Assembly: GCF_003991155.1 (NCBI RefSeq) | Contig: NZ_CP031293.1 | DNA length: 64,000 bases | Strand: one strand, 5' to 3' | DNA from: Escherichia coli | Lineage (GTDB): Bacteria; Pseudomonadota; Gammaproteobacteria; Enterobacterales; Enterobacteriaceae | In this document: positions 22,901-25,900 of the stretch, in pieces | Layout: every line of letters starts with the position of its first letter | Numbering within the stretch: the first letter of the stretch is position 1 | Position numbers: made by a program

Positions 22901-25900
22901 AAGGCGTTTATTACCGAGCAGTTTATCAACTGGTCGCTCTCTGACTCGGTCACGCGCGTGGTGTTGACGATTCCGGCCCCTGCCGATGCCAACAGTGAAG
23001 AAGTGACGGAAATCCTGCTCACCGCAGCGCGTCGCTGCTCGCTGGTGATCGACAACCCGGCACCGGAAGTCTTCCTGGTGGATCTGCAACAGGGGATTCA
23101 GATTTTCGAGCTGCGTATTTACGCCGCTGAGATGGGTCACCGTATGCCGCTACGCCATGAGATCCACCAGCTAATTCTGGCAGGCTTCCATGCCCACGGT
23201 ATCGATATGCCATTCCCGCCCTTCCAGATGCGTCTGGAAAGCCTCAACGGTAAACAAACGGGGAGAACGCTGACGTCTGCGGGCAAAGGTCGTCAGGCGG
23301 GAAGTTTATAAGGTTTTGTAGCCGGATAGTCTCATCCGGCTCACCAACAAAACAGATAGCGCAGGGAAAACTGCCACAGCCAATAGAAGAGCATTATTGA
23401 AATAACAAAATATTGCCAAAGAGAGTGCTGTTTCTTCCAAATAACAGCATAAATATATGGGATGAATAATGGTAAGGTCATTATAATACCAACTGGGCGA
23501 ATATCATCATTCTCAAGATATGTCATAACATCACAAACATTATTAATTCCTCTACCGTCGATAAACCACTCTTTGTCTTGAACAGATAAAAAATCTATCC
23601 AAAATATGCTTATAACAAACCAGATAAGGTTAAGGGAAAATGATTTCCAGTTCATCATAGATTATTCATTATTTTCATTAAAGCAGTTTTCTTTTCAAGA
23701 ATACGTCGACCATATTCACTGTATTCTCTCTGATGGGATCCTTTCGGTGCTGCAATGGAGTCTATAATATCTTGTTTATTTCTTTCAATACCACGGTTGT
23801 ATCGGGAGCCGACTACAATTAACTGCTCATCCGTTAAATTAGTGGTGTCACCTATTTCCGGATAGTCATAATGTATAAGGTCTCGTAAATGAAATGCTAC
23901 CACTCTAATGTTGAAGCGGTCATTTAGTAAGCACTGGGAAAGTTGGAACTGCTCAAAGGATGACAAAAGATCTGGATGTATCCCTATAGTCCTGGCTGCA
24001 ACGCCTAACTGTATTGCGACAGAACCGACTGAAGTAGAGTTTGAGTAGGTATTGCCTCCTCTCTTTGAAACGGCCTCTAGGATTATTTTTAATTGCAGCA
24101 CCCCCACTGGTTTAAATCTTTCTGGCATTCCGCCAACCTCAGCAGCCGCAACGCCCGCAAGTAATAATAACGGGATTTGCGCCTCTTTGGCATATTGCCA
24201 CAACATATCACGGTGATAAATCAACCATGATGTTTTATATAACCATAAGTGTGCAGTCCCCGTGCTGAATGTCCAATTAGTCGGAAGAAAACGCCATCGA
24301 AAATAATCAATGCCATTCCATTTAGGAAAGCCTAATTCATCAACTTCGCAAAAAATAAGATTATTCATTTAAAGTCCCTTATTAAAATCATTCCCAGAAT
24401 GAAGAATAGTACTATCATCAGAAAAACTGATTTGTGATGGGACAGACAAAAAATATAAAAAAGGGTTCGACTTAAGATAATCAAGATAAAACATATATAC
24501 CCAATAAACCTCAAGATGCGGGTGTGAGCACCTGAAAGTGATCGTTAATTCGGGATGTCAGAGAGTCCGCTATATCCGGCAGCGTCTGGTTAAAAAAGAC
24601 AGAAAAACGGGATACATTATATTCATGAATGGTTTTATATTCGCAGATTAGCGGTGACGTCAGTGCTTTCAGATTCAGCGCCCCCATGATATTCAGGCGT
24701 GTGCGGCAGCCTGTTGTTTTTACTGCTTTTTTCTGGCCTTTACGTATCCAGCCATAGCTGATTTTAGTGGCCTGAGTCGGATGGACTCCATCAATAAAAA
24801 GAACCGGTTCATCACCCACAGTTATTTTCAGTTCCTCATAATATTCAATGAATTGCCTTTGTTTCTCTTCACTGAATTTATGGGGGACGCCTGACGGTTT
24901 TTTGTAGGTGAAACCATTACGATGCAGCCACTTATTCATCCCCGGAATGCTGAAAATGATGTTCCATGTCCGGGTGATAAACGCAATAACATCGCGGGTA
25001 TGGTGAAATAAATTATCGGATAACTGGCTGATTAAAAGGCCGTTTGTTCAGCACTGAGTTTGCTGTCTGAGCCGCCGTTTTCGGGCTTCAGTTTTCCTTT
25101 ATTCAGGAATTCGCTGATATGGTGATCAATCGTTGTCTGATGCAAGCGTAAAGCCTGAGCAATCATGGCAGAACTCCAGCCTTCGGAAACCAGAAGAATG
25201 GCTTTAATACGATCTCTGACTCGCCCGTCACGACTGGAATCATGAAGGCGTTCAAGTTCAGCTTTTTGTTGCTCAGTAATGAATATTTTCATGTTGGACA
25301 GCATGATCTTCTGTTGCTGAAAAATCAAGCATCTTCAATGATCACGGGTATATAAGGTGAATATTTATTGTTTTTAATATAAAAATCGCTTGCCCAACTT
25401 ACAGAGTGACTGCAAGCTGGATAATATACTCGTCATACTTCAGAACGGTAAGCAAACGGGGTGAACGCTGACCTCTGCGGCTAAAGCGCGCCAGGACGGC
25501 GGTATATAAGGTTTTGTAGCAGGATGGTCTCATCCGGCTACAAACAAAACTGATAGCGCAGAAAAAACTGCCACAGCCAGTAGCCGAAAATCACAAGCGC
25601 GGTGGCATACATAAACCAGCCGCGTTTTTTTCGCCACAAAGCGAACCAGAGAAAAGGGAAAAAGAGCGGTAACGTCATTATCACACCGACATCGCGGGTA
25701 TCATCATTTTCCAGATACTCCAGCACATGGCAGATATTTTTAACCCCACCTTCATCAATCATCCACTCTTTGTCCAGCGTGGAAGTGATGACTATCTAGG
25801 GGATCGCTACAACAAACCAGATGCAGCATAAGACAAACGTGCGCGCACTCATAAGATAACCCGTAGTTTAATTTCGCTATAGCGCATACGAAATCCCACT

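Follow-up and report, generated by a model that had tools for sequence, protein, structure and literature searches.

The closest described counterparts of the gene pair analysed here are peptidoglycan glycoside hydrolase effectors of type VI secretion (T6SS), namely Tse3 of Pseudomonas aeruginosa (the Tse3/Tsi3 pair, also Tge1/Tgi1) and the Tge1-3 families, the latter reportedly defined by Whitney et al. in 2013. These proteins have a lysozyme-like fold and a catalytic Glu, lack a signal peptide and are proposed to work in the target cell, within its periplasm. Immunity proteins known to counter T6SS peptidoglycan hydrolases are lipoproteins or soluble proteins of the periplasm. Tse3 is a cargo of Hcp1 (PMC8262886). 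In hcp islands, the effector gene is followed by the immunity gene and displaced immunity genes are kept (PMC3235180, PMC9796082), and the occurrence of a newer cassette beside a displaced older immunity gene is likewise a described pattern (PMC9796082, PMC5361080).

The locus studied here lies in a 64-kb stretch of Escherichia coli DNA (the window), at the conserved housekeeping junction between mscM and yjeM and, unlike the hcp islands and the orphan-immunity arrays, outside any T6SS cluster. Adjoining mscM, the minus strand encodes a 237-aa protein (23655-24368; RefSeq WP_001061059.1, 'hypothetical protein'), a candidate T6SS cargo effector, and then a YjeO-family (Pfam DUF2645) inner-membrane protein of 105 aa (23341-23658), the candidate immunity protein. 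The first ATG of the membrane gene gives a 4-nt overlap (ATGA) with the TGA stop of the 237-aa gene; RefSeq uses the second ATG, at 23655, with a 1-nt overlap and a product of 104 aa (WP_001308294.1). The ATGATGA junction (23652-23658, minus strand) reads ...AAT AAT CTA TGA TGA ACT..., and judged by its sequence it is of the coupling type with either start, an arrangement typical of translational coupling. The GC content of the 237-aa gene (40.3%) and of the membrane gene (33.6%) is below that of mscM (55.5%) and of the whole window (50.4%). The effector gene is preceded on its 5' side by an AT-rich stretch (24369-24510, minus strand) with a possible RBS, AAGGGA, 8 nt before the ATG. A simple consensus scan upstream of the gene revealed no sigma-70 promoter on the effector strand, and a promoter/terminator scan (10 sites versus 5.8 expected) was uninformative. 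Full-length homologues of the 237-aa protein form about 110 clusters with 38-91% identity, in Enterobacterales and some Betaproteobacteria, and the ORF is therefore a real gene and not a chance ORF. An earlier sequence-only reading of this DNA had described the minus-strand ORF, its low GC relative to the surrounding core genes, the overlapping stop and start, and a membrane partner with three TM helices, all of which were found here; it had also allowed that the frame might be an artefact, which the homologues refute.

The 237-aa protein is basic overall (pI 8.5). In a Kyte-Doolittle scan every 19-residue window stays below 1.6, and with its acidic N-terminus (MNNLIFCEVDELGF) the protein therefore has no TM segment and, as the earlier reading had stated, no signal peptide. 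Its AF2 model (pLDDT 80.8, pTM 0.81) displays a lysozyme-like (GH23) fold, in agreement with the loose likeness to lysozyme-like SLT domains that the sequence-only reading had drawn from three strings, LLLLAGVAAAEVGG (residues 67-80, including Glu77), VGVLQL (88-93) and SRYNRG (188-193), each of which is present in the protein as quoted. Among 32 family sequences the invariant residues are E77, G79-G80, S113, G115, Q120, H160 and R189-Y-N-R-G193. Cys7 and Cys146 are also invariant. The E, S, Q and G of this signature are still invariant in 53 distant fused members, and Glu77 is the sole acidic residue invariant in both close and distant members. In the model, Glu77 ends a buried helix (67-77) and S-x-G...Q follows in a small beta-hairpin, an order that recalls family 1 lytic transglycosylases and other GH23 proteins (Slt70, MltC, MltE, MltF; goose-type lysozyme), whose AYNAG motif may correspond to RYNRG of the 237-aa protein. 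The hhalign comparison with the Slt70 C-domain places E77 on the catalytic Glu478 in a weak, non-significant alignment (E 0.47) that serves as a pointer to the Glu position only. There are two candidate equivalents of the GLMQ motif, VGVLQL, which is not conserved, and S113-x-G-x4-Q120. The segment S113-V-G-S-V-A-I-Q120 is more probably the GLMQ-like motif, because it is invariant and forms a beta-hairpin in the model, whereas VGVLQL is lost in distant members.

The family departs from SLT domains in having Val/Ala-Gly-Gly and not the canonical Ser after Glu77, a variable insert of about 25 residues that separates the Glu from the S-x-G-Q hairpin, no export signal, and a genomic context that is toxin-like rather than housekeeping. 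It also falls below every Pfam SLT (PF01464) threshold, with no match at E<=0.1 for any of the 32 family members and a best score of E 0.07, for one member, among the 53 distant fused ones. Pfam gave no match to the 237-aa protein even at E<=10, nor did NCBIfam and PADLOC searches match it, and a literature search yielded no paper on its family. When the family profile was run against all PDB chain sequences at E<=10, neither Tse3 (4luq) nor Tge2 (4kt3) was found, which sets the family apart from these effectors at the level of detectable sequence similarity; Tse3 is also longer, 408 aa against 237 aa. The profile matched SynGAP and PHIKZ034 alone, both at chance level. In the absence of a significant match to Pfam SLT, Tse3 or Tge2, the assignment as an enzyme rests on the predicted fold and the motifs, which point to a putative GH23/SLT-like peptidoglycan glycosidase.

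The membrane protein matches Pfam DUF2645 (PF10840) with E 5.4e-29, the match covering positions 3-98 of the 98-position model, and all 25 partner proteins tested, K-12 YjeO and YgiZ among them, score E<=0.001 against this domain. Its AF2 model (pLDDT 90) consists of three long helices (4-25, 54-74 and 80-102). The loop between the first two, of about 29 residues (27-55), is acidic (mean 7.8 D+E) and carries Cys42, in contrast to a basic N-terminus and a basic 75-81 loop. The C-terminal Cys104 is invariant, and the prediction places the two conserved Cys residues on one side of the membrane. In the predicted topology this side is the periplasm, which also holds the acidic loop, and the N-terminus is inside. 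Pairwise identities of effectors and of their DUF2645 partners co-vary (r = 0.86, Mantel 0/2000 permutations), as would also be expected from plain genetic linkage. We infer that the DUF2645 partner is the immunity protein for the 237-aa effector. The immunity gene would then lie immediately downstream, as in Tse3/Tsi3, and its product would be a polytopic inner-membrane protein, in contrast to the lipoprotein or soluble periplasmic protein of that system. Set against the known inhibitors, a protein made up of three TM helices and one 29-residue loop would be an unusual one, which counts against the assignment. The literature searched, which excluded most subscription journals, contained nothing on DUF2645/PF10840 and no link of yjeO or ygiZ to T6SS.

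In other species, the genomic surroundings of the family fit those of T6SS cargo. In a scan of one genome per species, which gave 53 species-level loci, the DUF2645 gene lies directly 3' of the effector gene in 51, mostly with a gap of -4 to +3 nt; an adjacent gene whose product is predicted to face the compartment of the toxin fits an immunity role. An hcp gene, recognised by Pfam PF05638 at some loci and by the RefSeq label 'Hcp family' at others, is found within 400 nt of the effector gene in 22 of the 53, either upstream in tandem (Dickeya, Brenneria, Rahnella, Buttiauxella, Samsonia, Siccibacter, Pectobacterium) or downstream in convergent orientation (Xenorhabdus, Photorhabdus, Serratia). 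These hcp-linked genes sit in islands of two or three genes outside the T6SS core clusters, and relatives have the order hcp-effector-immunity in common with the hcp-island modules of Pantoea and Erwinia. The family is thereby linked to hcp genetically, as Tse3 is to Hcp as its cargo. A profile search of 1.8 billion proteins showed the effector domain in 415 representative clusters, and the long family members additionally contain PAAR, DUF4280, eCIS_core, TseH, OmpA or PG_binding_1 domains. By Foldseek, PAAR, RHS and eCIS proteins likewise carry the effector fold C-terminally. In the closest fusion, P0172, PAAR is joined to the effector domain and a DUF2645 gene follows immediately. The linkage to hcp, vgrG or PAAR that is general for T6SS cargo is thus a property of the family and not of the window. 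Enterobacteriaceae relatives carry an intact effector gene beside mscM with no adjacent hcp, a sign that Hcp supplied from another locus can suffice. The vgrG-linked 'chaperone-effector-immunity' system of UMN026 (PeerJ 2024) is unrelated.

Taken with the fold and the conserved residues, this context makes it probable that the pair is a T6SS cargo effector-immunity module composed of a peptidoglycan glycosidase effector and a polytopic membrane immunity protein. The effector would be a GH23/SLT-like enzyme that cleaves the glycan strands of peptidoglycan and, because it is made without an export signal, would be harmless in the cytoplasm of the producer. In T6SS-positive relatives, it would travel as cargo of the Hcp tube or as a PAAR fusion and be injected into neighbouring Gram-negative cells, reaching their periplasm, the compartment also proposed for Tse3 and the Tge families. 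There, Glu77 may act as the general acid in cutting the MurNAc-GlcNAc backbone, the enzyme being a lytic transglycosylase or a muramidase. The co-translated YjeO-family protein would span the inner membrane, N-terminus inside and short acidic loop in the periplasm, the loop probably pinned by a Cys42-Cys104 disulfide, and this loop may bind and block effector molecules arriving from sister cells. The position beside mscM is ancestral in Enterobacteriaceae, and the module in the window looks newly reacquired, its neighbours being the remnant of an IS630 element and an older yjeO that is displaced and inactivated. With no hcp nearby in this E. coli lineage, the module may have immunity as its main role, or its effector may rely on a T6SS at another place in the genome.

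We lean, with less assurance, towards a broader reading in which DUF2645 proteins, K-12 YjeO and YgiZ included, form a novel class of T6SS immunity proteins that are polytopic in the inner membrane. Through the disulfide-pinned acidic loop they would neutralise GH23-like effectors undescribed as judged against Tse3 and Tge2, and most E. coli would keep them as orphans against Hcp-delivered effectors, which about a quarter of E. coli genomes and many other Enterobacterales carry. A bolder corollary is that, with its immunity protein embedded in the membrane, the effector may work at the surface of the membrane, where its substrate would be nascent or lipid-linked glycan and not the mature sacculus. 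If these proposals are true, a new family of peptidoglycan-targeting effectors would extend over plant, insect and gut Enterobacterales and about 23% of complete E. coli genomes, and the immunity repertoire would gain an unusual architecture, a three-TM protein with a periplasmic loop of about 29 residues.

An effector-immunity family may be genuine and yet undeployed in this E. coli lineage, the effector being silent or undeliverable for want of a cognate Hcp or T6SS and YjeO' alone mattering, against attackers that carry the effector. We consider this possible: neither hcp nor any other T6SS gene is present within the 64-kb window, and strain CUVET16-465, in which the pair is 100% identical, has no T6SS genes at the three sites examined, the mdaB-qseC hcp-island site, aspV and metZWV (aspV and metZWV being usual insertion sites of T6SS islands in E. 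coli). The AT-rich DNA with no consensus promoter upstream of the effector gene agrees with silence, and in one of the 44 carriers of the pair among 5426 E. coli genomes an IS1 lies inside the effector gene with yjeO' intact. Most E. coli genomes, moreover, keep a DUF2645 gene without the effector. Against this stand the effector ORFs intact in 43 of the 44 carriers, which weigh little because the carriers are at least 99.5% identical and there has been little time for decay, and the Enterobacteriaceae relatives in which the gene beside mscM is intact even with no adjacent hcp.

A lysis cassette of the endolysin/holin kind, an option that the sequence-only reading had left beside the effector-immunity pair, would have the signal-less muralytic enzyme reach the periplasm through lesions made by the three-TM protein of about 105 aa and lyse its own producer, as a phage remnant or a bacteriocin-release module. 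There is a superficial resemblance to phage class I holin-endolysin pairs, both being tightly linked genes for such an enzyme and such a membrane protein; the effector has a match (E 9e-25) in phrog_11932, a PHROG family of unknown function, and a phage baseplate gene is found near one locus on a Serratia plasmid. However, tblastn gave no match in 50,697 phage records, and BFVD contained no viral structure at E<=0.001, the best TM-score being about 0.45 with generic SLT/GEWL likeness alone. No phage genes occur beside the pair, in the window (where the neighbours are mscM, the IS630 remnant and yjeM) or at the chromosomal loci examined. The gene order is reversed, enzyme before membrane protein, and the membrane gene stands alone in thousands of E. 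coli genomes including K-12, which would be odd for a holin. This explanation also leaves the linkage to hcp and PAAR unaccounted for, and we regard it as very improbable. The SLT-like fold and the location beside hcp in many species could instead reflect wall remodelling by a lytic transglycosylase specialised in opening the peptidoglycan of the cell that makes it, for instance to let a T6SS or another envelope machine assemble, with DUF2645 as its membrane anchor, exporter or regulator. This, too, seems improbable, if slightly less so: the protein lacks a Sec or lipoprotein signal, and no route is known by which it would enter the producer's periplasm; the genes lie in small islands apart from the T6SS core clusters, fusion of the domain to PAAR and eCIS cargo markers is toxin-like, and the distribution is patchy with the partner gene found as an orphan. 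The hcp adjacency, the PAAR fusions and the near-universal DUF2645 pairing in other species strongly support the effector-immunity pair.

DUF2645 genes stand alone in most E. coli: of the 5426 genomes, 4598 have ygiZ but only 1261 the order hcp-effector-ygiZ, O25:H4/ST131-type strains among them, and 3029 have a K-12-type yjeO. In this light, K-12 yjeO and ygiZ look like orphan, leftover immunity genes, and if this is true, two long-uncharacterised genes gain a testable role as orphan immunity against type VI attack. K-12 yjeN and yjeO encode 104 aa each and overlap by 4 nt, as in the map given in the earlier reading. The suggestion made there that K-12 retains a remnant of the 237-aa gene was not borne out: yjeN shows no BLASTP similarity to it, the family HMM, run with filters off on six frames of the yjeN region, found nothing, and it is the membrane partner of which K-12 keeps a homologue. 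YjeN lacks Pfam domains and is confined to Escherichia and Salmonella; in Salmonella, yjeN alone, with no yjeO, lies between yjeM and mscM.

Between the pair and yjeM, the window retains traces of an older arrangement. A second, K-12-type yjeO (25538-25852, minus strand), 85-88% identical to K-12 YjeO, carries an in-frame stop (25796-25798) that inactivates it, and RefSeq annotates its 74-aa tail alone (WP_000564601.1). Beside it lie the last ~45 nt of yjeN (25853-25893, minus strand), the remainder of which is deleted relative to K-12 in the alignment. Self-BLAST and K-12 alignment revealed a 66-bp duplicated remnant of the mscM 3' end (25444-25509, plus strand); extended by the bases after it, it matches 23246-23386 with 85% identity over 141 nt, and it marks the boundary of the older cassette. 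The window thus resembles the sequential displacement described for orphan-immunity arrays of Vibrio cholerae in having a newer cassette beside a displaced older immunity gene, and differs from such arrays and from hcp islands in that the older immunity gene is inactivated and the Enterobacteriaceae clade carries the pair without hcp. If the proposed reading is true, the mscM-yjeM junction would be a documented hotspot of gain, displacement and degradation of effector-immunity cassettes in Enterobacteriaceae. The new pair is separated from the older cassette by a degraded IS630-family (ISEc40-like) transposase gene split in two ORFs (24511-25328, minus strand; partial matches to NCBIfam NF033545), which RefSeq notes as 'frameshifted' and which is 98% identical to ISEc40 copies elsewhere.

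The gene pair proposed in the sequence-only reading, with its overlap, its low GC content and a first member devoid of a signal peptide, is confirmed by coordinates, base composition, hydropathy and a DUF2645 match. An ORF reading of the window gives a candidate effector gene of 237 aa (23655-24368, minus strand) ending in ...CTA TGA TGA... and a hydrophobic partner of 105 aa, YjeO' (23341-23658, minus strand), the start of which falls within the effector stop codon. Where other E. coli strains carry identical DNA, RefSeq annotates both genes, as WP_001061059.1 ('hypothetical protein') and WP_001308294.1 ('YjeO family protein', with the second ATG as start). 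Their GC contents are 40.3% and 33.6%, respectively, against 55.5% for the convergent mscM, which ends at 23311. Since the 237-aa protein contains no hydrophobic segment and has an acidic N-terminus, it carries no export signal. The stops of mscM and yjeO' converge on a perfect 7-bp inverted repeat, GCCGGAT-N6-ATCCGGC (23321-23340); it resembles a shared hairpin terminator but lacks a T-run and for that reason is absent from the terminator scan output.

No sequence match for the 237-aa protein was found in Pfam, NCBIfam, PADLOC or the PDB sequences. Its family is nevertheless well conserved and comprises about 110 clusters at 90% identity, with Citrobacter members up to 89% identical and others in Kosakonia, Enterobacter, Cronobacter, Dickeya, Pectobacterium, Brenneria, Xenorhabdus, Photorhabdus, Serratia, Yersinia and Rahnella, as well as in a few Betaproteobacteria. 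From an alignment of 32 sequences, AlphaFold gives a confident model (pLDDT 80.8, pTM 0.81), except at residues 1-14 and in a variable stretch around 81-110. The figures listed for this model against known folds are 11.4 for Slt, 11.2 for MltE, 10.5 for MltC, 10.4 for both Slt70 and MltF, 9.4 for goose-type lysozyme and 8.6 for phiKZ gp144. Judged from this resemblance of the model, the protein very probably adopts a lysozyme-like (GH23) fold, as had been guessed from its motifs.

Residues invariant among the 32 sequences include E77, G79-G80, S113, G115, Q120, H160 and R189-Y-N-R-G193, and 53 far more distant, longer relatives retain without exception a Lys, Glu77, a Gly, and the Ser and Gln of S-x-G-x4-Q. 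Glu77 is thus the sole universally conserved acidic residue; in the model it occupies the C-terminal end of helix 67-77. A profile-sequence alignment with the catalytic domain of Slt70, not significant in itself (E 0.47), places E77 on Glu478 of the ARQES motif, a residue whose role in Slt70 is well established. As for the GLMQ-like motif suggested earlier, the VGVLQL string chosen for it is lost in distant members, and on one reading the invariant S113-V-G-S-V-A-I-Q120, a beta-hairpin in the model, may be the equivalent instead.

The genomic company of the family points to a secreted toxin. In a neighbourhood scan of one genome per species, which recovered 53 loci, a DUF2645 gene directly follows the 237-aa homologue in 51, mostly with a gap of -4 to +3 nt, i.e., coupled as in the window. 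An hcp gene lies at most 400 nt away in 22 of the 53, either directly upstream on the same strand (Dickeya, Brenneria, Rahnella, Buttiauxella, Samsonia, Siccibacter, Pectobacterium) or convergent and just downstream (Xenorhabdus, Photorhabdus, Serratia, P. zantedeschiae); the calls were confirmed by Pfam PF05638 or by the RefSeq label 'Hcp family type VI secretion system effector'. Because hcp genes are very few in a genome of thousands of genes, we infer that 22 adjacencies in 53 loci cannot be due to chance. The hcp-linked pairs form small two- or three-gene islands amid housekeeping genes. Additional DUF2645-like ORFs close to the pair, in Photorhabdus australis (L042 10537-10854) and Pectobacterium brasiliense (L055 7632-7865), may be surplus or orphan immunity genes grouped in short arrays.

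With filters off, an HMM search against 1.8 billion representative proteins returned 415 clusters, many of them of 300-1000 aa with the domain at the C-terminus. Among 53 long members, Pfam recognised eCIS_core in 12, OmpA in 5, PG_binding_1 in 4, PAAR and Ntox3 in 2 each, and DUF4280, TseH and Pesticin in 1 each. Closest among the fusions is P0172 (L074 1085-2472; E 3e-76), in which PAAR is joined to the effector domain and which is directly followed by a DUF2645 gene; a 310-aa relative has a DUF2645 partner likewise. A Foldseek search independently located the effector fold as the C-terminal part of PAAR, RHS and eCIS proteins. In these fusions and in the hcp linkage, the domain behaves like a toxin module carried by contractile injection systems; with eCIS_core among the fusion partners, extracellular contractile injection systems are a suggested delivery route beside T6SS. 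To judge from the peptidoglycan-binding domains to which it is fused, its putative substrate is peptidoglycan.

The partner in the window matches Pfam DUF2645 (E 5e-29), as do all 25 partners tested, K-12 YjeO and YgiZ included. Its model (pLDDT 90) consists of three long helices, 4-25, 54-74 and 80-102. Acidic residues are nearly missing from the basic N-terminus and 75-81 loop of the partner and abound in its strongly acidic loop 27-55 (mean 7.8 D+E versus 2.7 K+R); from this charge distribution an N-in topology is predicted, with loop 27-55 and the C-terminal end in the periplasm. The effector has a basic pI of 8.5. The loop Cys and the invariant penultimate Cys of the partner both fall on the predicted periplasmic side and might form a disulfide. 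These cysteines (Cys42 and Cys104 in YjeO') are an almost universally conserved pair, as are Cys7 and Cys146 of the effector; periplasmic disulfides in both proteins, and hence DsbA dependence, are plausible. Across 49 pairs, the effector is better conserved than the partner (mean identity 53% versus 32%), and their pairwise identities co-vary (r = 0.86, reached by 0 of 2000 permutations), which fits cognate pairs, although genetic linkage alone could give such co-variation too. The DUF2645 protein is probably the immunity protein. The converse assignment, with the partner as the toxin, is ruled out, since its gene is kept alone in most E. coli genomes.

The option of an effector/immunity-like pair is accordingly supported by the DUF2645 pairing, the hcp adjacency and the PAAR fusions, and membership in a T6SS effector-immunity family is likely; effector activity, delivery and immunity are what we infer throughout. 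The other option raised from sequence, an endolysin/holin lysis cassette, has a single point in its favour, a hit (E 9e-25) to the functionally uncharacterised family phrog_11932. It was not borne out: there is no phage context, tblastn of the effector against 50,697 phage records returned nothing, no close viral structures were found, the enzyme and membrane genes come in the opposite order, the latter exists as an orphan, and the linkage to hcp and PAAR would be left unexplained. The family profile also matched PDB 9xps (PHIKZ034) weakly (E 0.24), over the YNRG...YG region, which, together with phrog_11932, may reflect a remote relationship to virion-associated muralytic proteins. A transglycosylase remodelling the cell's own wall would sit poorly with a protein that lacks any export signal, with genes outside T6SS core clusters and with toxin-type fusions. 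As a T6SS effector-immunity pair, the genes are proposed to be functionally akin to Tse3/Tsi3 and the Tge/Tgi class (PMC4832377), of which Tse3 is an Hcp1 cargo (PMC8262886). At the sequence level, however, the 237-aa protein could not be recognised as belonging to Tge1, Tge2 or Pfam SLT, and its DUF2645 partner differs in kind from known immunity proteins.

The pair is carried by 44 of 5426 complete E. coli genomes, always at the mscM locus and at least 99.5% identical, from hosts and sources including humans, cattle, poultry, pets and wastewater. In one carrier (E. coli ECOD1, L001 3356-4846), IS1 lies within the 237-aa gene and the downstream yjeO' is intact. At the mscM-yjeM position K-12 has yjeN-yjeO, likewise with a 4-nt overlap, and ST131-type strains have yjeO alone. 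The suggestion that K-12 may retain a remnant of the 237-aa gene was rejected, since sequence comparison shows yjeN to be unrelated. YjeN has no Pfam domain and occurs in Escherichia and Salmonella only; in Salmonella enterica (L072, L073 5001-5378) a 125-aa homologue, 69% identical, is the sole gene between yjeM and mscM, yjeO being absent.

A second E. coli locus (NZ_MG591698.1, L068 3489-5020) holds hcp, a 236-aa paralogue (34% identical to the effector) and ygiZ (DUF2645), in that order, between mdaB and qseC; the record is labelled a plasmid yet contains chromosomal parE, mdaB and qseBC. The full island is present in 1261 of the 5426 genomes, O25:H4 strains included. The island query matched in 4598 genomes, and those outside the 1261, K-12-type included, matched at the ygiZ end only; K-12-type yjeO occurs in 3029 genomes, 2153 of them also with yjeN. 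From these counts, yjeO and ygiZ look like orphan immunity genes, a pattern known from hcp islands and Vibrio (PMC9796082, PMC5361080). The 2.6-fold increase of yjeO upon sigma-E overexpression (PMC2731931) and the activation of the ygiZ promoter by BglJ-RcsB (PMC3950696) fit loosely with an envelope-defence role. The searchable literature, which leaves out most subscription journals, yielded nothing on DUF2645/PF10840 and nothing tying yjeO or ygiZ to T6SS.

There is no hcp within the 64-kb window. In CUVET16-465, whose pair is 100% identical, mdaB abuts qseC with neither hcp nor ygiZ between them, and no T6SS genes were found at the aspV and metZWV tRNA sites, which we take to be common T6SS insertion sites in E. 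coli (three sites in all: L077 13230-15270, L079 11728-13537, L081 37984-40612). From these sites, the pair-carrying lineage may lack a T6SS, and there is a real, though less than even, chance that the effector is not deployed here and simply travels with an immunity gene that is of use.

In Citrobacter, Enterobacter, Cronobacter, Trabulsiella, Atlantibacter and Pseudocitrobacter the pair occupies the same site, convergent on mscM and with no adjacent hcp; the mscM junction therefore appears to be a long-standing home of the module in Enterobacteriaceae, from which the effector was presumably lost in most E. coli. In the window lineage a full, AT-rich, Citrobacter-like copy adjoins remnants upstream of the pair on which the sequence-only reading was silent: a frameshifted IS630-family (ISEc40-like) transposase (24511-25328, minus strand), a 66-bp duplicate of the mscM 3' end (25444-25509), the last ~45 nt of yjeN, and a second, K-12-type yjeO (25538-25852, minus strand) with an in-frame stop at 25796-25798, all before yjeM. 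The second yjeO looks like a displaced, inactivated older immunity gene, and the whole arrangement appears to be the signature of cassette replacement by recombination. A 141-nt direct duplication (25444-25583 versus 23246-23386, 85% identical), spanning the mscM 3' end, the intergenic hairpin and the yjeO 3' end, is a likely footprint of that replacement; identity to K-12 is 96% for the copy nearer mscM and 87% for the farther one. RefSeq annotates just the 74-aa C-terminal part of the second yjeO, as 'YjeO family protein'. Intact copies of the transposase, at 98% identity, occur elsewhere in other E. coli genomes, and the old yjeO is also followed by a degenerate copy of the inverted repeat.
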